Made by a program: the position numbers and the translations under genes | Assembly: GCA_030753015.1 (NCBI GenBank) | Contig: JASMDC010000051.1 | Coordinates: 1 to 23,474, forward strand | Direction of reading: 5' to 3' | Length of the DNA stretch: 23,474 nt | Source: Candidatus Undinarchaeales archaeon | GTDB taxonomy: Archaea > SpSt-1190 > JASMDC01 | In this document: piece after piece, positions 7,951 to 17,511 of the stretch | Position numbering within the stretch: position 1 is the stretch's first letter | Layout: every line of letters starts with the position of its first letter | The notes under the pieces: model-generated | Databases searched by the model: none | The model's input: the letters and a program-made list of their open reading frames with translations, nothing else | What the model was told of the DNA's origin: nothing

Positions 7951-9324
7951 ATGCGGTTCATCGATAGGGAGCCAGAACTGGAGGAGCTGGGACGGATACG
8001 GTCCCTTTCCGAGCGGAAGCTCTTTGCCATCGCGGTCTACGGCATACGGAGGGTGGGCAAGACACGGCTCGCGCTGGAGTTCCTAAAGGACGGCGGGACC
8101 TACCTCTTCGTCAACCGCAACAAGAGGTCCTCGGACCTCCTGAAGGAGTTCGAGGGGGTTCTGCGGAGCGGGGGTCTTCTCGGTGAGCTCGAACGGCTCG
8201 ACTCCTGGGAGCGGTTCGTCGACGTCATCATAGCGAGGTCACAAGGACCTGTCGTCATCGACGAGTTCCAGAACTTCCACCACGTGGAGCCGTCCTTGTT
8301 CGGGACGCTGCAGCAAGCTCTTGACACCCACGAGGACACGCCCGGCTGCATCGTACTGCTCGGCTCGGTCATGGGGCTCGTGAGGAGGACGTTCGAGGAC
8401 AGTAGGGAACCGCTGTACGGCAGGGTGAAACGGGCCATCCGGCTGCGACCGCTGTCCCTCGCGGCCACCCTGGAGGCCGGACATGAGCTCGGGCTCTCGC
8501 GGGAGGACGCGGTGAAGTGCGCGTGCATCTTCGGCGGGTACCCGAAGTACTACGTCACCATCGAGGACTTCGCCCTTCAGGGGCGGACCGCGGAGGAGAT
8601 CATCGACGCGCTCGTCCTGTCGGGGAACGCGCCGCTCGAGGACGAGGTGAACATGGTGCTCTCCCAGGAGTTCGGCCGACGGGGGGGCAGGTACTACTCG
8701 GTCCTGGAGGCCATCGCCAACGGGAGCACCACCCTCTCCTCCATCGCCGCGTACATGAGGGTGCCACCGACGTCCATCACACGGCACCTCAAGGAGCTCC
8801 GGGACTACTTCGAGCTCATCGGGCACGAGCTGCCGTTCGAGGGCAAGCGGGGCATCTACCTGATCAGCCATCCCCTCCTCAGGTTCTGGTTCGCGAACGT
8901 CCACAAGGACCTCACCCGCTACGTCGCCCGGGACCCCTCGTTCATCGAAGGCATCAGGAGGGGCCTGCCCGCCTACCTCGGGAGGGCGTTCGAGCCCATC
9001 GCCCGGGAGTTCGTTGTCGGCAAGCTCGGTCTCACTGAGGCCAGAGGGCAATGGGGGAGGGTACCGGGCGCCCCCAAGGGGGAGAACACCTACGAGATCG
9101 ACCTCATCGGACGCTCAGGGACGGGTACCTGTGCGTTCGAGTTCAAATGGCAGTCGCTCGATGTCCGTGATTGTCACACCATCCTGGCCGGATTGGAAAG
9201 GAAGACGTCCCTCGTCCGCACCCTTACCCCGGACACGCGGCTCGGTATCGTTGCGCGCAGGATCAGGGGAAAGCGGACGCTGCGGGAAGAGGGTGCCCTG
9301 GTCTACGATATCGACGACTTCTGA
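7951..9324 (+). CDS. Archaeal ATPase (ATPase_2) + wHTH + DUF234/PD-(D/E)xK nuclease-like domain
   Basis: FIDREPEL, Walker A YGIRRVGKT, Walker B VVIDEFQ, PLYGR, GGYPKY, HTH TLSSIAAYM..SITRHLKEL, LRFWF, EIDLIG..FEFKW. Confidence 0.92.
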   Translation: MRFIDREPELEELGRIRSLSERKLFAIAVYGIRRVGKTRLALEFLKDGGTYLFVNRNKRSSDLLKEFEGVLRSGGLLGELERLDSWERFVDVIIARSQGPVVIDEFQNFHHVEPSLFGTLQQALDTHEDTPGCIVLLGSVMGLVRRTFEDSREPLYGRVKRAIRLRPLSLAATLEAGHELGLSREDAVKCACIFGGYPKYYVTIEDFALQGRTAEEIIDALVLSGNAPLEDEVNMVLSQEFGRRGGRYYSVLEAIANGSTTLSSIAAYMRVPPTSITRHLKELRDYFELIGHELPFEGKRGIYLISHPLLRFWFANVHKDLTRYVARDPSFIEGIRRGLPAYLGRAFEPIAREFVVGKLGLTEARGQWGRVPGAPKGENTYEIDLIGRSGTGTCAFEFKWQSLDVRDCHTILAGLERKTSLVRTLTPDTRLGIVARRIRGKRTLREEGALVYDIDDF

Positions 9325-9337
9325 CGACATCAGTGCC

Positions 9338-9473
9338 CAAGAAGGAAGGTCGGACATGATGCAGCGGGGGGAAGGAAATTAATCCAGGTGCCACACCATG
9401 CCCTGTACATACTAAGGCGTCCATAGTTAATGAACCTGTCGTATTGGTTGTCGTTACGGTATTGGGAACGCCC
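9338..9473 (-). ncRNA. Intergenic element copy E1 (candidate promoter + hairpin small RNA)
   Basis: Homologous to E2 and E3. Stem arms 9352-9365 and 9390-9403; TATA-like 9427-9434. The repeat is certain, the RNA call is inferred. Confidence 0.5.
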
Positions 9474-9489
9474 GCTCCATCGGGATCAC

Positions 9490-9660
9490 ATTTGGCAGAC
9501 AGTGTCTGCCAGATCTCTTGTTCCGGTGATCGCGAGGTGTAATCGGAGATAAGGGTCTGCCGGGTTCGGGGATACGCAGGTCATATCGAAGGCCGTAGAG
9601 GATGTAATTGTGGCAACCGTGTTGCCACTTTTCTTGGTGTCTGACATCTTGAAGGCAGCA
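9490..9660 (-). pseudogene. Orphan fragment of a DUF1016/YhcG palindromic linker
   Basis: Minus strand reads KVATRLPQLHPLRPSI* (compare KVGTSSPQSHPLPAPIC in 15194-16414, with matching DNA catcct.tac.g.ct.cgatatg.cctgc). IWQTLSAK lies 117 bp further on in the same frame. Confidence 0.7.
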
Positions 9661-9670
9661 GCTCATAAGC

Positions 9671-11077
9671 TCAGGGCATCAATCTCATCTGGAAGTCACT
9701 GCGTTTCTTCTTGCTTTCCTTCATCTTTTTCTTAATGACCTGATCGAAGTCTTTGGCCCTGATGAAGATGTACTTGTTACCGATCATCCGCCTTTCTATG
9801 AAGCCCAGATTCTCCAAGTGGAGCAGATCCGACCGTGCGGTCTGGTACACGACGTCGAAGGTGTTCTTGGCCTCGTTTATCGTGAGTGTCCGTTTCGAGT
9901 CCTCTGACAATTTGTTCAGGATGTACCGTTGACGATCGTTAAGACCATCGATCTGCAGGAACTTGAACAACTTGTCCTTTTCCTTGATCTTCTTGGATAT
10001 GTACTCCTTGAGGTCCTTGAGGGCGATATGGATCGTCCTGATCTTGTACTTGATGAAATAGGTGACATCGTTCTCGTCCTTTTCCGAGTGAAGATATGCT
10101 CGAGCGTACTGTGAAGGCGCTCGGATGATCGTCTTGGAGATGGGCATGTACTCGATCAACCAGTACTCGTTGGATATGAGGTACCAGTAGAATATGGCCC
10201 TCGCGGCCCGTCCGTTCCCGTCCTCGAATGGATGGACGAAGCCGATGAGGAAGTGGAGGATGCTCGCTTTGATTATCGGATGGATGAACTTCTGCTTCTG
10301 CATCTTGTTCGCGAAATCGCACACGTCCCGGACCAGTTGCGGGACCAGCTTGTGATCTGGCGGTACGTGAACGGATTCGCCCGTCATCCGATCGATGACG
10401 TGGACATCGTTCGTGTCGCGGAACCGACCCTCGTATTTCTTATCATCGAGCGTGTTGCGTGTGATGAGTGCGTGGATCTCCAGAAGTCGTTCGGTCGTGA
10501 GCGGATCGTTCTTCAGCTCGATGATCCTCTTGATCGTAAGGTAGTTGTTCAGGATCATCTGTTCGGACCGGTCCCTGGGCTTCCGTGACGTCCTCAACAT
10601 CTCCTTCGCCACCTTCCGCGTCGTTACAGCACCCTCCAGCTGGCTGGAAGCGATGGCCTCCTCCATGAGCGAGCTGATCAGGTACCTATCCCGGTCCTCT
10701 TCAGGGATGATGCTTGTCGTCGATATCGATCCTCCCAGATTCATGTCGAACTCGTGCAGCTTCTCGAGGATCGGGTTCGAAAGATTGAACTTGATATCCA
10801 ATAACTTTGTTTTACCGATGTTGATCTGTGTGGCTTTCAATGTTCGCAATAATTTGATCAGTGCCCATAAGGAGTCGTTCTTGATGTCCTTTGGCGGAGA
10901 GCGGTAGCGGATCTCGTCCCAATAATAGTAATTATCATTGACCTTATCAACGAACTTATGTACATCCGCTCGTTCGAGGTTCTTGATCACTTCCTGCATC
11001 TTGTCCTTATCCCCGAATATCTTCGATACATCCGGAGGATCGCTTGGCATCTTCATTGGATAGTATTGTGTGCTCAT
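9671..11077 (-). CDS. Fic-family protein (class II-like) with C-terminal wHTH
   Basis: Canonical HPFEDGNGRAAR motif; N-terminal inhibitory-type SSQLEG; C-terminal YQTARSDLLHLENLGFI HTH. Visibly more AT-rich than its neighbours. Confidence 0.95.
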   Translation of the reverse strand: MSTQYYPMKMPSDPPDVSKIFGDKDKMQEVIKNLERADVHKFVDKVNDNYYYWDEIRYRSPPKDIKNDSLWALIKLLRTLKATQINIGKTKLLDIKFNLSNPILEKLHEFDMNLGGSISTTSIIPEEDRDRYLISSLMEEAIASSQLEGAVTTRKVAKEMLRTSRKPRDRSEQMILNNYLTIKRIIELKNDPLTTERLLEIHALITRNTLDDKKYEGRFRDTNDVHVIDRMTGESVHVPPDHKLVPQLVRDVCDFANKMQKQKFIHPIIKASILHFLIGFVHPFEDGNGRAARAIFYWYLISNEYWLIEYMPISKTIIRAPSQYARAYLHSEKDENDVTYFIKYKIRTIHIALKDLKEYISKKIKEKDKLFKFLQIDGLNDRQRYILNKLSEDSKRTLTINEAKNTFDVVYQTARSDLLHLENLGFIERRMIGNKYIFIRAKDFDQVIKKKMKESKKKRSDFQMRLMP

Positions 11078-11098
11078 GGATATTTATGTCTTACTAAA

Positions 11099-11210
11099 AA
11101 CTACTAATATCTGTCAAATTAGTAGTTAATTTGTTCTACCCTGCATATAATACAATAAACACGACAATGCGACGTAGTATGAACTACTATTTTCTTTACA
11201 ATTAGTAGTT
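11099..11210. promoter_or_regulatory. Two 10-9-10 palindromic operators upstream of the Fic gene
   Basis: aactactaat-N9-attagtagtt (11099-11127) and aactactatt-N9-attagtagtt (11182-11210). Confidence 0.75.
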
Positions 11211-11366
11211 TTCTTGAGTTTAGGCATTAAGATCACGCTTTTTTCACGCCGCTTAGCTCCTTCATATATCCCGGATAATGAACGTTCTTATTGGGATTGT
11301 TATTATCGTGGGAAGGAACTGGGGTGATTACCGCTATCCTGGCGGCGTTCCCTGATGATACGCCCC

Positions 11367-11992
11367 CTACCCGTCAGCTGGCAGCATGTCCTCCCGTCTC
11401 ATCTGCTCTTCCAGGAACCGCTGGATCTCCTCCTTTTCCGGCAGCTGCAGTCGATAGCGGTGAGCTGTTCCAGATGGGTGTACGATAGCGATGACAGTAG
11501 TCTTCCGGAAGTAGTGACAAATTGTTGCGTCAGTGACGCAACAATCTCTGATGGAGGACAATCCGGGGATGGTAATGGATGTGATTGTTGCGACACTGTC
11601 GCAACTTTTCCAGGTAGCATTGTTCTGGGGAATCGCAGACCACCGAGCAATTGTGGAGACAGTGTCTCCACAATCTTTGGATAGCACAGGTAGAACCGCC
11701 GATAACGATACAATGCGATCCTGTCGCAGCGTCTCATCCCTTTTTCATGCAAGGCCTTTGCCAGATCGTCCATCAGGCGGTCGCCGTAGGTTGCCCGGTC
11801 CACGCCCTTGCGTTCGTACTCCTCGATATGGAACCCGATCAGCCAGTTCCTGATGGTCAGGCTGATGTTCACGGCCTTCGTAGCATGAACGGCCAATCGC
11901 TCGTGGACCTCGGCGATCGTGCCGACAAGGGCCCCAAAGCTCAATGACCCGCCGGTCCCCTTACCCCTCGCCACCGTTCTCTTTGTGGCCAT
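11367..11992 (-). pseudogene. DUF1016/YhcG paralog with a 598-bp internal deletion and frameshift (nuclease domain lost)
   Basis: N-terminus aligns with 15194-16414 up to HLEQLTAI. At tcgatagcgg (11451-11460) it jumps to the terminal RYRLQLPEKEEIQRFLEEQMRR segment in another frame. Confidence 0.9.
11521..11674. repeat. Three 25-bp palindromes in the DUF1016 pseudogene linker
   Basis: attgttgcgtca-g-tgacgcaacaat, attgttgcgaca-c-tgtcgcaacttt, attgtggagaca-g-tgtctccacaat; centres 11533, 11596, 11662. Confidence 0.92.
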
Positions 11993-12120
11993 GGCATCAC
12001 ATGTACACCATGGGTACTATCCCTTATTCCGTCTCGTTACTACCCGGGGTCGTCCTTTGGGCGTCCAAGAGGCACCATGACGTGCATCATCACCCGGGTG
12101 ACGGGGACGGTATCAGACCA

Positions 12121-12259
12121 GGGAAAGAAAATCGGGCATAGTGCAGCGGGGGGAAGGAAGTAAATTCCAGGTGCCACACAATGCCCTTGTTCCCGTGTAA
12201 TGCGTCCGGAGTTAATTAATCTGTCGTTTCGGGTGCCGTCACGGTTCCGGGAACGCCCC
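12121..12259 (-). ncRNA. Intergenic element copy E2 (candidate promoter + hairpin small RNA)
   Basis: Stem arms 12134-12147 and 12173-12186; TATA-like ttaattaa 12212-12219; abuts the stop codon of the TPR gene. Confidence 0.5.
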
Positions 12260-13288
12260 CTACCCGTCTCTTGGCAGCATGTCCCCGGGCCGGAGCGTCC
12301 GCATCACGTCCCGCTTCCACGTGTCGAGCGACCCCGACAGCCTCTTCGCGAACCACTCGAGCGAGCCCTCGGTCTCCACCCAGCCCCCGTGCGCGTCCGC
12401 GACGTACGACACGGCCTCGGACTCGTCCCCGATCCCTATGGAGTCCGGCAGGGTTCCGGGGATCGGCCTGAGCCCCAGGAGGTAGAGGGGGACGAACGGG
12501 TTCGCCCGCAGTGCCTCCTTCAGGCGGGCGTTCGCCCTGCGGCCCGCGCCCTCGCGCCTGAAAGTCCACAGCGCGCGGCCGTAGAGCCAGAAGGCGGAGC
12601 CCTCGTCGTGCCGGTCCAGGAGCTCACCCGCCTCGTCGTCCGAACCCGCCTCCAGCAGCGCGCCGAGGAGGAGGTGGCGCACACCCTGGTTGTCGTCGGG
12701 ATTGAGCTCAAGGAGCGCCCGGTAGTGATCGAGCGCCGCCTCCCGCTCCCCGAGCTCCCAGAGGGTCACCGCGAGCCCGAGCCGCGCGCGCATGTACGGC
12801 CGGGTCCCCGACTTGCTCCAGAAGCGGCCCTCGGCCTCCACCTCGGCGAACAGCTCCTCGCCGAGCACCCGCTTGCCGGCGACCACGCCCTTCGCGTAGA
12901 TCTCTTTCGCCTCCTCCAGGTCCCTTGCAGACTCCTCGGCGAGCAGAACGTGGGCGTCGGCGCAGTCCTTGGAGATCTTGAGCGCGCGCCTGGCGAGGGC
13001 GATGCGCTTCCGACGGTAAGGTTCCTCCCACGCCGTGAACATCACGTCCTGGGCCCTTTCCACCGGTGTCAGCTCCCGTTCCGGCGGCGGGATGGACCTG
13101 CCAGGGCCCATGAACTGCTGGACGTAGGCGTTCATATCCTCGATCGAGCCGAACCGCTTGTCCTCCACGAGCCGCTCGATGTCGGTGAAGTGCTTCTCCA
13201 TCGCACGGCGCATGAAGACGGGGTTCGGCGGCGGGTCGCCACGCCTCTTCCGCTTTGAGCCCTTCTTGTGCTTTCTCACATGCGTCAC
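12260..13288 (-). CDS. ST7-like / tetratricopeptide-repeat helical protein
   Basis: AQDVMFTAWE..RIALARRALKISKDCADAHVLLAEE, TRPYMRARLGLA, LLELNPDDNQGVR, LKEALRANPFVP match the prokaryotic ST7/TPR family as I recall it. Confidence 0.75.
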   Translation of the reverse strand: MTHVRKHKKGSKRKRRGDPPPNPVFMRRAMEKHFTDIERLVEDKRFGSIEDMNAYVQQFMGPGRSIPPPERELTPVERAQDVMFTAWEEPYRRKRIALARRALKISKDCADAHVLLAEESARDLEEAKEIYAKGVVAGKRVLGEELFAEVEAEGRFWSKSGTRPYMRARLGLAVTLWELGEREAALDHYRALLELNPDDNQGVRHLLLGALLEAGSDDEAGELLDRHDEGSAFWLYGRALWTFRREGAGRRANARLKEALRANPFVPLYLLGLRPIPGTLPDSIGIGDESEAVSYVADAHGGWVETEGSLEWFAKRLSGSLDTWKRDVMRTLRPGDMLPRDG

Positions 13289-13385
13289 CGTGCGAGCGGA
13301 CGTGATGTGATAAAAGGATATGCTCCACAGGGACGGAAGATGGGAAACCCCTTATGTCTCCCCCTCCTGACCACTGGCTGGGAAG

Positions 13386-13451
13386 ATGGTGCAGTACTCC
13401 GACCGGGAGCTGATCGACGCGCTGAAGCGGGCCGCCGGGGCGAGGCGGTAG
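13386..13451 (+). pseudogene. Possible 21-codon gene remnant (MVQYSDRELIDALKRAA..)
   Basis: Host-like codon usage; resembles the YSDEELxxALRRAA start of homing-endonuclease-associated repeat proteins. Very short. Confidence 0.3.
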
Positions 13452-13508
13452 ACAAAGGTTTGATTTGGGGTGGGGTACGGGGGCGATCGTTCCCGCGGGG
13501 AGCAGAAT

Positions 13509-13551
13509 GTATATATAGTTGAGACTAAAGTATACTACTTGTGTCTCAACT
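13509..13551 (+). promoter_or_regulatory. TATA box and concentric inverted repeat covering the start codon of ATPase gene 2
   Basis: tatatata at 13510-13517; agttgagac (13517-25)/gtctcaact (13543-51) and aagta/tactt share centre 13534; GTG start at 13541. Confidence 0.6.
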
Positions 13552-15007
13552 CTTTGTCGACAGGGGCCCTGAACTCGGTTTCCTGAAGGAACGGCTCGGC
13601 TCGAACGAACCGGAGTTCGTGGTGATCTACGGCCGCAGGAGGGTCGGGAAGACCAAGCTCGTGCTGGAGTTCCTGAGAGAGGAACGAGGTATCTATCTCC
13701 TGGCCACGGAGGAAGGCGACCGCGAGAACATACGCGCTTTCGCTACGGAGTTCGGGAAGTTACTGGGTGACGACGGTTTTTCGAAGGCGACCTATCCCGA
13801 CTGGTCCTCCCTTTTCGATTCCCTCTGCAACCACGCGGCCTTCACGAAGGAGCGGGATGAAAAGACCATCATAGTTATCGACGAGTTCCCGTTCCTGATC
13901 CGCGGCAACAGGGCGGTCCCCTCGATCTTCCAGAAGATCTGGGAGCAGGTCCTGGAACGACGGAACGTCATGCTCGTCCTCCTCGGCTCCTCGGTGAGCG
14001 CCATGGAATCAGAGGTGCTGGGCTACAAAAGCCCCCTGTACGGGCGGAGGACGGGGCAGTGGCAGATAGCGCCGCTCGAGTTCCGTTTCCTGGGGGAGTT
14101 CTTCCCGGACTATACGATAGAGGACCTTGCGAACGTGTGGTTCGTCGTCGGCGGGATACCGGCCTACCTGCTTAGGTTCGATCCGCACCTCTCGTTCTTC
14201 GAGAACGTCGAGCAGAAGGTCCTGAAGAAGGGCTCATACCTCCACAGGGAGATGGACATCCTGCTCCGGGACGAGTTCCGTGAGCCGAGGAACTACAGGC
14301 TCATCTTCAAGGCGATCTCGCTAGGGTACCACCGTCTGGCCGAGATATGCGACCAGACCGGGCTCGACAAGAGCATGGTCTCCAAGTACCTGGACGTGCT
14401 CGACAGGCTCCACCTGATCGTGGAAGAGAAGCCCGTCCTTGCCCCCGCGAAGTTCAGGAGGAAGCGCCATCTCCTCTCGGACCAGTACTTCTCCTTCTGG
14501 TTCAGGTACGTGTACCTGAACAGGATCGAGCTGGAGGCCATGCGGTACGGGGAGGTCCTTGGTCTGGTGAAGAACGATTTCCCTACCTATGCGGGCAGGG
14601 CCTTCGAGTCCCTGGTGAAGCACCTGCTCCTGACAGGGACCGTCCGGGGACCCTTCCCGTTCACGAGGATCGGTCGGCAGTGGGGAAAGGTCCCCGGGGC
14701 AAAGAGGGGGAAGAACACCTACGAGATCGACCTCGTGGCCGTGAACGAGGCGACCGTGGACATCTTGTTCGTCGAGTGCAAGTGGAAGGAGGGGGTCAGC
14801 GCACGACGCGTGCTGGCGGAGCTCAGGGAGAAGGCGGGGCACGTCGACTGGCGAAAAGGCTCCCGGAAGGAGCACTTCGCCATCTTCGCGAAGTCGTTCT
14901 CCCGGCGCTCCGATGACTGTCTATGCTACGACCTGAAGGACCTGGAGAAGACACTCCCGGGACGGGGACGTGAAGGCACGGGTCCGTCGCCCTCGATGAC
15001 CTCGTGA
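13541..15007 (+). CDS. Archaeal ATPase (ATPase_2) + wHTH + DUF234/PD-(D/E)xK nuclease-like domain
   Basis: FVDRGPEL, YGRRRVGKT, IVIDEFP, SPLYGRRT, GGIPAYL, FSFWFRY, EIDLVA..VECKW. Confidence 0.93.
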   Translation: MSQLFVDRGPELGFLKERLGSNEPEFVVIYGRRRVGKTKLVLEFLREERGIYLLATEEGDRENIRAFATEFGKLLGDDGFSKATYPDWSSLFDSLCNHAAFTKERDEKTIIVIDEFPFLIRGNRAVPSIFQKIWEQVLERRNVMLVLLGSSVSAMESEVLGYKSPLYGRRTGQWQIAPLEFRFLGEFFPDYTIEDLANVWFVVGGIPAYLLRFDPHLSFFENVEQKVLKKGSYLHREMDILLRDEFREPRNYRLIFKAISLGYHRLAEICDQTGLDKSMVSKYLDVLDRLHLIVEEKPVLAPAKFRRKRHLLSDQYFSFWFRYVYLNRIELEAMRYGEVLGLVKNDFPTYAGRAFESLVKHLLLTGTVRGPFPFTRIGRQWGKVPGAKRGKNTYEIDLVAVNEATVDILFVECKWKEGVSARRVLAELREKAGHVDWRKGSRKEHFAIFAKSFSRRSDDCLCYDLKDLEKTLPGRGREGTGPSPSMTS

Positions 15008-15042
15008 CGGGGACCGTGCACTTCTTCAGGGGACAGTAACAG

Positions 15043-15185
15043 GCTCAAGAAGGAAGAATGGGCATGATGTAGCGGGGGGAAGGAAGTATTAATTCCAGGT
15101 GCCACACCATGCCCTGTGCATTATTAGGTGTCCAGAGTTTATCAACCTGTCGTATCGGGTGTCGTTACGGTCTTGGGAACCCGCC
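15043..15185 (-). ncRNA. Intergenic element copy E3 (candidate promoter + hairpin small RNA)
   Basis: Stem arms 15060-15073 and 15101-15114; TATA-like 15138-15145; directly downstream of the DUF1016 stop. Confidence 0.5.
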
Positions 15186-15193
15186 TGGTCGTG

Positions 15194-16414
15194 TCACGTC
15201 GGTGGCACCTGCGTCCGTTCCCTTCTCATCTGCTCTTCCAGGAACCTCTGGATCTCCTCCTTTTCCGGCAGTTGCAGTCGATAGCGGGAGACGAAGAGCT
15301 GGTTGTCCATCCCGGCAAGGGCGTATTCCACCAGAGCACGGTCCTTCTGCGTGCAGAGAAGGAGGCCCACTGGAGGATTGTCACCACTGGTCATCTCATT
15401 GTCGCGGTACCAGTTGAGATAGGTGTTGAGCTGGCCGAGGTGTTCGTGGCTGAAGCCATCGACCTTCAGCTCGATCAGCACGTGGCACTTTAGGATGCGG
15501 TGGTAGAGGACCAGATCGACGAAGTAATGTCCGTCGCCTATGAGCATCCGCTTCTGTCTGGCCTCGAAGCAGAAGCCGTGCCCGAGCTCCAGCAGGAACT
15601 CCTGGAGCCTGTCCAGCAGCAGGTCCTCCAGTTCCGACTCGCCCATCACCTCTTTGGCCCGTATCCCGAGGAACTCGAACACATAGGGGTCACGTACCGT
15701 CAGGCGAGGCGAATCCACTTCCGCGCCCGATCGTACGAGCTCGGCCAGCTTCTTCTTGTCCCTCGACAGCCCCGAACGCTCGAAATAGAGACTGGCGATC
15801 TGGCGCTTGAGCTCCCGCACGGACCAGTTGCCCCGGACGCATTCTATCTCGTAGAAGGAGCGCTTCAGCGGGTCCTCGATAGCGGTGAGCCGTTCCAGAT
15901 GGCAGTACGATAGCGATGATAGGAGCATTTCGGGAGACGTTCCCAATTGTGGCAACAGTGTTGCCACAATCTCTGGTGCAGGGCATATCGGAGCCGGTAA
16001 AGGATGTGATTGTGGGGACGATGTCCCCACTTTTACTGATGACCGATATCCTCTAGGTAGAAGAGAATGGAATTGTGGAGACAGTGTCTCCACAATCTGA
16101 GGATAGCACAGGTAGAACCGACGGTAACGATACAATGCGCCCCGGTCACAGCGTCTCATCCCTTTTTCGTTCAAAGCCTTTGCGAGTTCGTCCATCAAGC
16201 GCTCGCCATAGGTGGCCCGGTCCACGCCATCGCGTTCGTACTCCTCGATATAGTAGCCGATCAGCCAGTTCCTGATGGTCAGGCTGATGTTCACCGCCCT
16301 CGTGGCATGAACGGCCAGTCGCTGATGGACCTCGGCGATCGTGCCGACAAGGCCGTCAAAGCTCAATGCTGTACTGAACGCCCTGCCCCTCGCCTCCGTT
16401 CTCTTCGGGGCCAT
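15194..16414 (-). CDS. DUF1016/YhcG-family PD-(D/E)xK nuclease domain protein
   Basis: AVNISLTIRNWLIG..YGERLM..YRRFYLCYP, RSFYEIEC..NWSVRELKRQI, RDPYVFEFLG, FLLELGHGFCF, VDLVLYHRILKCHVLIELK, GQLNTY, PPVGLLLC. Confidence 0.95.
   Translation of the reverse strand: MAPKRTEARGRAFSTALSFDGLVGTIAEVHQRLAVHATRAVNISLTIRNWLIGYYIEEYERDGVDRATYGERLMDELAKALNEKGMRRCDRGALYRYRRFYLCYPQIVETLSPQFHSLLPRGYRSSVKVGTSSPQSHPLPAPICPAPEIVATLLPQLGTSPEMLLSSLSYCHLERLTAIEDPLKRSFYEIECVRGNWSVRELKRQIASLYFERSGLSRDKKKLAELVRSGAEVDSPRLTVRDPYVFEFLGIRAKEVMGESELEDLLLDRLQEFLLELGHGFCFEARQKRMLIGDGHYFVDLVLYHRILKCHVLIELKVDGFSHEHLGQLNTYLNWYRDNEMTSGDNPPVGLLLCTQKDRALVEYALAGMDNQLFVSRYRLQLPEKEEIQRFLEEQMRRERTQVPPT
15946..16096. repeat. Three 25-bp palindromes at exact 63-bp period in the DUF1016 linker
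   Basis: attgtggcaaca-g-tgttgccacaat, attgtggggacg-a-tgtccccacttt, attgtggagaca-g-tgtctccacaat; centres 15958, 16021, 16084. Confidence 0.92.
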
Positions 16415-16712
16415 GGCCTCACACGTGTACGATGACGTCCATCCCTTAATCGTTCTCGTTACTACCCGGAGTAGTCCCTAGGGCGTCACTGTCGGCCTCT
16501 GGGACCTACCCGTCCGCCAGAAGCATGTCCGTAAGGTCCGGTCATCATAGGGAGCGGATTTGTCGCAGTATGACGTGACACATACGTCGTCGGGGGCTGT
16601 GGGGACGCACGACCATGTAACGGTCGCCCCTAGAGTGCCCAGGGAAGGTTATGATCAATCACACCATGGCATGACCTGTGCGCCCTCACGGTCCCGGGGA
16701 CCCGCCCGGCCG

Positions 16713-16812: not shown

Positions 16813-17511
16813 CTAGGTCCGGTACGAGATCCGATACTTCTCCCGTTCCTCGGAAAAGTGTTCACGGATCATCTCCTGGAAGGCACTGTACGCCTTCACT
16901 GCGTCCTTCTCGCCGATGATGTACGTCAGCTCGGTCATGGTGGAGATGTTCTCGAAGATGTTCACGTTCTCCCAGGCGAGCCTTCGTGTGACCAGTGAGA
17001 GTATGCCTGGCGTGTGCAGGAATTCCTCGCCCAGACTGAGGGTGATGGCGACCAGGTCCTTTTCGATGTTCAGGACCGTCTCATCCTTCAGGATCGTTCT
17101 CAGTTCATCGAGGTGCTTTTGGGAGATCACAATGGTGATCTCGTAGTTCCCCTGGATTATGTTGAGGGTCTCACCCTTCTCATAGTCGACCACTCGGTGT
17201 ATCTGCTCGATCCTGGCAAGGGCCGACGGGGCCTTGACGATGCAGACATCGCACAGGTTGGTCTTCATGATGATCTCGTTACTCCATGTTATCGGCTTTT
17301 GGATAATGGTCTCCTTCTTCAGCCGTTCTCCATGCCGCCGCAAGGCCATTATGATGGCCGTGTTCTTGACCTCGGTGCCGAGCTCTGCCTCGATCCGTGG
17401 CCTCAGCTTCTGGGCAAGGCTCGAGTAGTTGACGATCCCCTCCATTATCGCTTCCTGCAACCGGGGTCGCGCATTGATGATGCTCTTGACGACGTGGCTG
17501 ATCGTTACCAT
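16813..17511 (-). CDS. ACT-domain-containing putative amino-acid-sensing regulator
   Basis: N-terminal HTH-like GIVNYSSLAQKL..AIIMALRR; C-terminal aspartokinase-type ACT-like TPGILSLVTRRLAWENVNIFENISTMTELTYII. No kinase domain. Divergent from the lys operon. Confidence 0.75.
   Translation of the reverse strand: MVTISHVVKSIINARPRLQEAIMEGIVNYSSLAQKLRPRIEAELGTEVKNTAIIMALRRHGERLKKETIIQKPITWSNEIIMKTNLCDVCIVKAPSALARIEQIHRVVDYEKGETLNIIQGNYEITIVISQKHLDELRTILKDETVLNIEKDLVAITLSLGEEFLHTPGILSLVTRRLAWENVNIFENISTMTELTYIIGEKDAVKAYSAFQEMIREHFSEEREKYRISYRT

Follow-up and report, generated by a model that had tools for sequence, protein, structure and literature searches.

The question raised by a 23,474-nt stretch of DNA from a Candidatus Undinarchaeales archaeon (contig JASMDC010000051.1, positions 1 to 23,474; the whole stretch analysed is called the window) is why its genes of the DUF1016/YhcG family carry short palindromes that are translated in one codon phase and whose two arms change together. 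These had been pointed out in an earlier interpretation made from the DNA letters without database searches (the sequence-only reading), and were followed here through the window, the genome around it and 147 family genes. The conserved feature is the Watson-Crick complementarity of the arms, and the encoded octapeptide varies as the symmetry dictates; it is held with near certainty that the palindrome is a family-wide translated DNA element with arms kept complementary. The features on which the analysis was based are the following.

15194-16414, minus strand: gene A, DUF1016/YhcG, intact, 406 aa, with DUF1016_N, a linker with three units, and a YhcG_C PD-(D/E)xK domain

16072-16096, minus strand: gene A unit 1, ATTGTGGAGACA-C-TGTCTCCACAAT, 12/12 pairs, encoding IVETLSPQ

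16009-16033, minus strand: gene A unit 2, AAAGTGGGGACATCGTCCCCACAAT, 9/12 pairs, with 8-bp arms gtggggac/gtccccac, encoding KVGTSSPQ

15946-15970, minus strand: gene A unit 3, ATTGTGGCAACA-C-TGTTGCCACAAT, 12/12 pairs, encoding IVATLLPQ

11399-11992, minus strand: gene B, a 197-aa paralogue with DUF1016_N and linker only, PF17761 being its sole Pfam match (42.3 bits)

11650-11674, minus strand: gene B unit 1, same sequence as gene A unit 1, 12/12 pairs, encoding IVETLSPQ

11584-11608, minus strand: gene B unit 2, AAAGTTGCGACAGTGTCGCAACAAT, 10/12 pairs, encoding KVATVSQQ

11521-11545, minus strand: gene B unit 3, ATTGTTGCGTCA-C-TGACGCAACAAT, 12/12 pairs, encoding IVASLTQQ

about 9484-9640, minus strand: decayed DUF1016 linker fragment with two units, without flanking domains

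Gene A was assigned to the DUF1016/YhcG family (COG4804) since both Pfam domains scored above the curated cut-offs (PF17761, E 6.7e-23, 81.7 bits, cut-off 32.8; PF06250, E 4.9e-54, 182.9 bits, cut-off 32.5). It also matched the PADLOC candidate defence family PDC-S02, a candidate label only (PDLC04807, E 3.5e-123, residues 18-401), and its nuclease domain matched PDLC01464 (E 2.6e-30), a PD-DExK profile listed as associated with clustered regularly interspaced short palindromic repeats (CRISPR). Gene B is derived from an A-like gene that lost ~590 nt, and with them the nuclease domain, through recombination-type deletion between a pair of TCGATAGCGG copies (15278-15287 and 15876-15885 in gene A; 11451-11460 in gene B, where repeat families D2/D3 overlap); the deletion also shifted the frame.

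All units in the window are 25 nt long (12+1+12) and in frame. Counted as offsets in the minus-strand open reading frames (ORFs), they start at 318/381/444 (gene A) and 318/384/447 (gene B), always in codon phase 0, and are therefore spaced at 63/63 nt and 66/63 nt, respectively. Coordinates and offsets thus confirmed the palindromes, shared codon phase, peptides and spacings given in the sequence-only reading, and the orphan fragment with two units that it had mentioned was located as well (9607-9631, KVATRLPQ, 9/12 pairs; 9490-9514, IWQTLSAK, 11/12 pairs; 117 nt apart), with stop codons between its units when read in the unit frame. Folded as single-stranded DNA, the six units of genes A and B gave stems of 8-11 bp with 3-nt loops (free energy, dG, -8.6 to -12 kcal/mol; z -4.7 to -6.0), gene A unit 1 forming an 11-bp stem with a 3-nt loop (dG -10.6 kcal/mol, z -5.4), gene A unit 2 reaching dG -8.6 kcal/mol (z -5.95) and gene A unit 3 dG -12 kcal/mol (z -5.7); the unit at 9490 in the decayed fragment gave dG -8.9 kcal/mol (z -3.4).

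Chance and codon usage were ruled out as the origin of the symmetry by synonymous resampling together with shuffled and slid-partner controls. For each of the six A/B units, 20,000 synonymous variants were drawn according to the codon usage of the gene itself; the observed level of pairing was attained by 1.1% of these for gene A unit 2 and by 0-0.015% for the other five units, and the pattern ATTGT-N15-ACAAT, with 4 matches, was found 0 times in every one of 100 shuffles. A scan of the whole 3.85-Mb genome returned 5 perfect 12+1+12 palindromes, 4 of them in genes A and B, and 20 windows with 11/12 pairs, 3 of which were of DUF1016 type (window position 9490, C84:3147 and C90:5237). Of these 25 windows with at least 11/12 pairs, the 7 of DUF1016 type all lay in DUF1016 genes or fragments, and the remaining 18 were unrelated sequences. 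The two further DUF1016_N fragments in the genome each carry one unit (IVPQPVAQ on C90, IFQTLSGK on C84).

The two paralogues were then compared with each other. The N-domain is 86% identical between genes A and B (nt 1-318; 89% over a 300-nt block) and the linker block 77%, and the first spacer is not alignable. All 10 differences in the stems form 5 compensatory pairs, with 0 unpaired (two pairs in unit 2, at 6-20 and 8-18; three in unit 3, at 6-20, 9-17 and 10-16), and the only other differences between units are at the centre of unit 2, so the earlier observation that both arms change together held at every stem difference. Among the 17 genomes of the window's phylum that were searched, DUF1016_N was matched only in the window's own, a pattern that fits a gain of the gene by transfer, and relatives for comparison were therefore drawn from other phyla.

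For the subfamily of the window, 80 loci (51-64% identical, from many bacterial phyla and archaea) were fetched and analysed together with genes A and B (101 kb). Of the windows with 10/12 pairs or more, 127 were in frame 0, whereas frames 1 and 2 had 4 and 2, respectively. Unit 1 was then defined by position alone, two residues past an invariant Pro, in 79 of 81 genes (L022 and L047, without this Pro, were dropped), giving a mean pairing of 10.2/12 vs 5.7 in synonymous resamples and 3.0 in background in-frame windows, with the observed pairing reached by less than 5% of resamples in 71 of the 79 genes.

For canonical DUF1016_N genes, 72 loci were sampled (five genomes and samples of two phyla), of which 67 were left after removal of 5 duplicates, with a GC range of 28-65%. 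The best in-frame window had 12 pairs in 15 genes, 11 in 22, 10 in 11, 9 in 13 and 8 in 6, and lay directly 5' of a conserved LSW(S/T)H or LPWGH in nearly all of the canonical genes listed. When units were anchored on the W-x-H motif (present in 62 of the 67 genes), at least 10/12 pairs were found in 35 of 62 vs 0.7% of resamples, and 50 of 62 were below the 5% level. Over all 147 genes, a unit of at least 10/12 pairs was present in 121, of at least 11/12 in 95, and a perfect one in 31; windows with at least 11/12 pairs numbered 118 in ORFs (168 kb), 116 of these in frame 0, and 16 in the flanks (345 kb), a density ~15 times higher in ORFs.

The element has the general form R-ATT-nnn-nnn-nCA-S-TGn-nnn-nnn-AAT-Y, with outer triplets that are at times AAA...TTT, and its ATT and CAA/GAA/AAA codons are used even in GC-rich genes. 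One to four units are present per DUF1016/YhcG gene, placed just before the LSW(S/T)H/LPWGH helix in canonical genes, and after an invariant Y-P, recurring in the linker, in the window's subfamily. Genes with units come from Pseudomonadota, Bacteroidota, many more bacterial phyla and archaea, and DUF1016_N itself was matched in 45 of 201 sampled genomes in one bacterial phylum and 50 of 151 in another, as well as in archaea and on mobile elements. The motif is therefore no peculiarity of this locus, being a family-wide property of the DUF1016_N coding region and single in most canonical genes.

The peptide was found to follow the DNA. Octapeptides range over IVETLSPQ, IRESLTPE, IWQSVTAK, IRKSLISE, ILRSATAK and IFRSVSGK, and further over KVRSVTAL, IVQQAVGQ, IVHALRAQ, ISHTLCEK and IGYTLCSQ, with codon 2 paired to codon 8 (V-Q, R-E, W/L/F-K), codon 3 to codon 7 (E/G-P, R/Q-A, K-S) and codon 4 to codon 6 (T-S, S-T, A-P). 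In an alignment of unit 1 (79 sequences, 77 distinct), 88.2% of cells pair, vs 71.6% when shuffled (reached in 0 of 500 shuffles) and 29-44% with slid partners; changes on both sides were counted in 158 cells vs 68.7 in shuffles (0 of 500 reach), and the covariation score was 0.414 vs 0.159. On a FastTree tree of 66 genes, built with the linker left out and after dropping the 13 of 79 genes without an LS[FY][ST]H anchor, a minimum of 62 replacements of one Watson-Crick pair by another is required at pairs 4-10. Units within one gene are often unlike at the covarying positions (IWQSVTPK/IRESVTPE/IAESATPQ in L078; IRKSLISE/IVGTLSAQ in L039), being near-identical in L049, L064 and L076 and clearly unlike in L039, L055, L078 and L080. 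Symmetry is thus kept while the peptide changes, the opposite of a peptide motif kept without DNA symmetry, and protein selection alone does not account for it, as the sequence-only reading had argued and as the far less palindromic codon-resampled controls (5.7 vs 10.2/12) bear out. For annotation, the octapeptide 'motif' should be treated with caution as a by-product of the DNA, in which the amino-acid covariation (V/Q, R/E, W/K, E/G-P, R/Q-A, T/S) mirrors base pairing, not protein contacts.

The kind of pairing was determined on units pooled from the 147 genes, 219 distinct ones with 9 or more of 12 pairs. Each of the four Watson-Crick pair types is represented at pairs 4-10. Where third-codon positions in stem pairs 5-9 are free, G:T took up 4 of its 357 opportunities and was no commoner than A:C (19 of 519); transversion mismatches took up 48 of 876. 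The stem is 11 bp long in general, with the innermost pair as the only relaxed one (39 G:T, 31 A:C/C:A), as a 3-nt loop would predict, and with a relaxed centre. Position 8 (Q/E/K) uses an A-ending codon even in GC-rich genes, and T:G at pair 2-24 was seen in 0 of 73 units. At the centre, C (98 units) and G (97 units) are about equally frequent, without strand bias. In 107 of 176 units a Watson-Crick pair of R:Y type directly adjoins the unit on its outer side, and pairs farther out are at chance (20-31%); pairing thus ends one pair beyond the unit, which gives the element sharp ends and a length of 25-27 nt. Since wobble is not tolerated and the arms covary, the constraint is on DNA complementarity, not on RNA or protein. 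That this DNA-level constraint is selected and functional is considered probable. At a single homologous position in a gene family of very wide distribution, a constraint on DNA structure thus takes precedence over the encoded protein, with compensatory evolution such as is otherwise normally known only from structured RNAs.

Candidate functions were sought through the protein. The catalytic motif E284, D300, E315, K317 was invariant in an alignment of 37 sequences (A1), matching the E-D-E(I/L/V)K motif given for YhcG in passages of Kosinski et al. 2005, where the YhcG domain is related to DUF91/NucS, YraN and archaeal Holliday-junction resolvases (PMC1189080). The model of gene A had a mean predicted local distance difference test score (pLDDT) of 64, with the unit 1 peptide in a confident helical part (pLDDT blocks 89 and 85) and with values below 50 at residues 131-156, a stretch spanning the bulk of units 2 and 3. 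For a canonical member, the L145 protein, the model had a mean pLDDT of 80, and its octapeptide forms a short helix (H97-104) with an N-domain helix on either side. By VIA-align, the C-terminal domain matched NucS 2vld at Z 8.7 (root-mean-square deviation 3.2 A, 100 aligned), the AdnA nuclease at Z 9.2 and Hjc 1gef at Z 7.0, which are moderate Z values, and by Foldseek the Cas4 family, MGME1, RecE, Hjc and EndoMS at E 1e-3 to 2e-2; Foldseek with the first, poor model (mean pLDDT 64) gave no match at E up to 0.001. No sequence relative with a solved structure was found at E up to 0.1, no NCBIfam family at E up to 0.01, and nothing further in a low-stringency Pfam scan of three N-domains. As modelled, the C-terminal domain resembles a restriction-endonuclease-like fold of the NucS/Hjc-like PD-(D/E)xK branch, with likeness to RecB-type nucleases as well, in line with the published relationships (PMC1189080).

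A homodimer model scored 0.66 vs 0.00 for the best of 3 controls, with the interface on the N-domain helices (residues 9-75), at least 91% of contacts agreeing between runs and a partner pLDDT of at least 71. The mark of 0.66 was reached by 20 of 30 proteins solved as same-chain pairs and by 1 of 23 solved as single chains, counts that hold only roughly because an own alignment was used. The modelling lends support to a putative symmetric homodimer paired through the long N-terminal helices. According to passages of Hu et al. 2009, yhcG deletion is synthetic-lethal with hypomorphic dnaB, dnaN and parE alleles (PMC2672614), and in other studies DUF1016 is enriched beside programmed-inversion targets and present in restriction-modification loci (PMC9881135), and members of the family are over-represented at loci for defence and restriction-modification (PMC9881135, PMC3424549); further literature on the family includes PMC4316617 and PMC7967276.

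It is tentatively proposed, at somewhat below an even chance, that the predicted dimeric NucS/Hjc-like nuclease uses the palindrome in its own gene as a cis-acting site. The element would act in cis as a DNA hairpin, a cruciform or a two-fold symmetric site, and would be recognised by the gene's own product, the predicted symmetric homodimer with a NucS/Hjc-like PD-(D/E)xK domain. Recognition would serve self-regulation or self-loading, and would leave the site prone to breakage and local gene conversion; such events at the site would account for a hypervariable cassette, a varying number of units and truncated copies. Symmetry of the arms would be maintained by selection, with templated arm-to-arm repair (quasi-palindrome template switching) as a probable aid; hairpin-templated copying between arms, one of the mechanisms suggested in the sequence-only reading, is a plausible way of keeping them symmetric.

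Several points weigh against this proposal. The units within one gene are often unlike, and sequence recognition by a single reader would not cover them all; the whole set could be recognised only by structure, or through the conserved ends and centre alone, and a dimer reading conserved positions only would not demand symmetry at unread positions. For the same reason of unlike units within one gene, the second suggestion of the sequence-only reading, self-binding sites co-evolving with the peptide they encode, appears to fit poorly. Cruciform extrusion of a palindrome with 11-bp arms is expected to be rare in vivo. With the octapeptide modelled as a short helix, Ile1, Leu/Val5 and Leu9 may be under protein constraint, which would explain some of the conservation of ATT, xTG and T. 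Good palindromes also persist in the decayed fragment (9484-9640), which fits functionless self-maintenance and recent decay equally well. For the N-domain no clear relative emerged, its likeness to the helix-turn-helix of ParB/Spo0J (Z 6.0-6.6) being below the caution level for helical folds and no more than a lead, and breakpoints touching units in E. coli include junctions of the insertion sequences (IS) IS1 (H69) and IS629 (H60), each possibly one event.

A bolder form of the cis-acting proposal, quite unlikely, holds that the heritable hairpin or cruciform is the natural substrate or loading site of the gene's own resolvase-like nuclease, and that the action of this nuclease in cis would set its own level and trigger local breaks. 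Gene conversion with truncated paralogues or foreign alleles as donors would then mend these breaks and continually rewrite the N-domain segment at and around the palindrome. If this were true, the gene would be a self-targeting, self-diversifying nuclease gene, in which the conserved unit is a DNA structure and not a protein motif. The stem foot is ATT followed mostly by G or C, similar to the (A/T)TT-(G/C) at which RuvC, an unrelated resolvase, reportedly prefers to cleave, and this may be a lead.

The first alternative to a selected site is a neutral quasi-palindrome, in which an ancestral palindrome in a weakly constrained segment would stay symmetric solely through intrastrand template switching at replication, arm mutations being reverted or copied across, and the DNA structure would have no function. 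Quasi-palindrome template switching would yield exactly the paired changes seen between the arms of genes A and B; that all 10 stem differences are paired suggests fast symmetrisation, and strict Watson-Crick complementarity without wobble and the palindromes retained in the untranslated fragment (9484-9640) also agree with it. In E. coli reporters, such template-switch mutations are orders of magnitude commoner than base substitutions. As a mutational process, however, it leaves family specificity, fixed length and fixed position unexplained: the palindromes are tied to one family (4 of 5 perfect ones in genes A and B, and the ORF excess over flanks), one position is retained across bacteria and archaea (121 of 147 genes), the length of 25-27 nt does not vary even among linker units that are modelled as disordered and in which a neutral palindrome would be free to grow or shift, and ATT and CAA/GAA/AAA persist in GC-rich genes. 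The neutral account is accordingly judged unlikely.

The second alternative is a recombination or diversification device, in which the palindromes would promote breakage, cassette exchange and gain or loss of units, truncated copies would serve as donors, and the surrounding DUF1016_N segment would vary fast. The variation on which it draws was followed in E. coli. K-12 yhcG has three units (nt 303, IHQTMSGE, 11/12 pairs; nt 342, IPQTPSAE, 10/12; nt 381, IWQTLSAK, 11/12) spaced 39 nt start-to-start. Among 5426 complete E. coli genomes a yhcG match was found in 4465, with at least 80% of the gene covered in 3349, and alleles with one unit (a 78-nt deletion; IRQTVSGE, 12/12), two units (IVQTLSAQ, 12/12, and IRQTLSGE) and three units were observed. 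Identity to K-12 over nt 211-420 was bimodal in 4430 genomes, being at least 95% in 3941, 80-95% in 8 and 60-80% in 481 (70.7-72.0% among the matches listed, four rows, for this last class); the local hypervariability claimed in the sequence-only reading was thus seen both here and between genes A and B, which differ most in the linker. From the 60-80% class a single allele was fetched and compared in 60-nt windows, and was 53-72% identical for starts at nt 241-361 and at least 92% for starts at nt 1-181 and from nt 451, with homology to K-12 returning within the right arm of the last unit. In a truncation class (L163; hits H27-H29, H54-H59), yhcG is cut exactly at the 3' end of the third unit, nt 405/406.

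This cassette in 481 of 4430 genomes, with high identity outside ~nt 211-450, and the alleles with 1, 2 or 3 units favour a diversification device, as do, in the window, a first spacer that is unalignable despite 86% N-domain identity and the GTTGCG that units 2 and 3 of gene B have in common. Three truncated or decayed DUF1016 copies are present beside the intact one in the window's genome, and several of 20 fetched fragments break within ~10 codons of a unit (L172, L173, L174, L175, L176, L179, L181), but the fragments were mostly picked where the DUF1016_N match stops or starts near a unit, and this clustering is biased by the choice of sample and was not counted as evidence; nor was the best-unit score (fragments ~9.7 vs intact ~10.4, own averaging), for which the sample is too small. 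The unit site appears to be a recombination hot spot. Against the device as the explanation of the units, the E. coli cassette has its 5' end ~90 nt upstream of the first unit and not on a palindrome, most canonical genes have a single unit, which cannot mediate unit exchange, and some breakpoints are the ordinary IS events named above. To our knowledge, no benefit is known from varying this segment. A diversification device is given a small but real chance of being the explanation.

Hairpins in the messenger RNA (mRNA) that control translation, mRNA stability or termination were also considered. The stems would fold as RNA too, and two terminator-like matches lie on units. However, pairs of G:U type are as rare as A:C at free third-codon positions, A-ending codons without T:G at pair 2-24 are kept even at high GC, and the centre has no strand bias. 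In a search of 11300-16500 with Rfam 15 no family was found, the sole match being mir-653 (23.2 bits, gathering score 77, E 0.29). Terminator-like sites in 15100-16700 numbered 2, both on units, vs a shuffle mean of 1.0 (standard deviation 1.0), which is not above chance, and terminators and promoters were rejected as an explanation of the units for want of any excess over shuffles. An origin as mRNA hairpins is therefore very unlikely. A small mobile palindromic element inserting in frame, of the Rickettsia palindromic element (RPE), repetitive extragenic palindrome (REP) or miniature inverted-repeat transposable element (MITE) type, is scarcely credible: similar coding palindromes exist, those of the RPE kind having reportedly been described by Ogata in 2000 and 2002 (as cited in PMC4316617), and units are duplicated within genes, but the whole-genome scans, in which all 7 DUF1016-type windows lay in DUF1016 genes or fragments, rejected a dispersed repeat (REP, RPE, MITE) for the window's genome, the units occupy one homologous position throughout the family, and their sequences differ between genes with symmetry kept.

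The element was compared with known systems. Literature searches (few subscription journals covered, supplements excluded) found no published description of it, in agreement with the sequence-only reading, which knew of none. In passages of PMC3349717, ori-lambda is described as four 18-bp iterons within gene O, with O binding needed for initiation. It is a precedent for a protein acting on a site in its own gene, and it is like the element in having short dyad-symmetric DNA sites inside, and translated with, the gene of the acting protein, which here is the proposed one. It differs in that its iterons are near-identical and read by sequence, whereas DUF1016 units vary within a gene and within the family, with only complementarity, outer triplets and centre conserved; O is a replication initiator and the DUF1016 protein a nuclease. 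A further such case would be parS inside spo0J in B. subtilis, for which a search of papers gave no supporting statement.

Integron attC sites, REP elements and IS200/IS605 ends are DNA hairpins conserved in structure and variable in sequence. They share with the DUF1016 element the conservation of pairing over sequence, strict DNA-type complementarity and conserved bases at both foot and tip of the stem, but are non-coding and tied to a recombinase or transposase; the DUF1016 element is translated, and no such gene is linked to it. In-frame inverted repeats with both arms translated are described, in parts of the sources, for Rickettsia palindromic elements, Nematomorpha mitochondrial genes (PMC6649704) and PARCEL repeats (PMC2996958). 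Those coding palindromes are either dispersed or mobile, or else long repeats shared by many unrelated genes; by contrast, the DUF1016 unit is 25-27 nt long, occurs in one family at one homologous position, is inherited with the gene and evolves by compensation.

An array-like layout, palindrome plus 38-41-nt unique spacer, had been noted in the sequence-only reading; this stands for the window's subfamily and does not hold elsewhere, as the 39-nt start-to-start spacing in E. coli illustrates. It recalls a CRISPR array in the alternation of palindromic repeats with unique spacers and in the PDLC01464 match, and the units are able to mimic small arrays of that kind. They are, however, non-identical, lie in one reading frame of a Pfam domain, number only 1-4 and have other spacings elsewhere, and a CRISPR array was ruled out by the unlike in-frame units and the subfamily-dependent spacing. 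The element offers the first concrete handle on the function of the uncharacterised NucS/Hjc-like nuclease YhcG/DUF1016, and since it is present in E. coli K-12 it is directly testable there.

Other observations concern copies of the gene and the surroundings of those in the window. The 8.1-Mb genome of locus L065 (G019) has 17 DUF1016_N matches, and the copies fetched from it carry differing palindromes. At loci L168-L187, many short ORFs consist of the N-terminal DUF1016_N part and end soon past the unit, some of them frameshifted just before it. In E. coli Ec387 (L163, 2501-2906, the one locus fetched), the DNA past the cut is unrelated and holds a 101-aa ORF annotated as a transposase. Most of the other searched genomes of the window's phylum measure 0.6-1.2 Mb.

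Within the window, an intergenic repeat of ~85 nt, GGGGAC...GCAGCGGGGGGAAGGAAGTA...AATTCCAGGTGCCACAC, is present at 12103-12187 and 15029-15115 and inverted at ~9355-9400; it adjoins every DUF1016 copy or fragment of the window and is part of a larger duplicated module. Archaeal-type ATPase genes (ATPase_2 and DUF234) at 7951-9324 and 13541-15007, both on the plus strand, are each convergent with a DUF1016 copy or fragment, and ATPase and DUF1016 genes may form a two-gene module. At its start, the ATPase ORF at 13541 is overlapped by a 16-nt inverted repeat, AGTTGAGACTAAAGTA/TACTTGTGTCTCAACT (13517-13551; 88% complementary), which may be an operator or promoter element. DUF1016 copies are also flanked by a short repeat family at 11360-11391, 12253-12284 and 16499-16530 and by a second set at 12032-12060, 16454-16482 and 17274-17302 (D4 and D6 among the repeat families here). 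A 36-nt AT-rich repeat in two copies (11092-11127, 11175-11210) lies upstream of a Fic/DOC and HTH_DeoR gene (9671-11077, minus strand).

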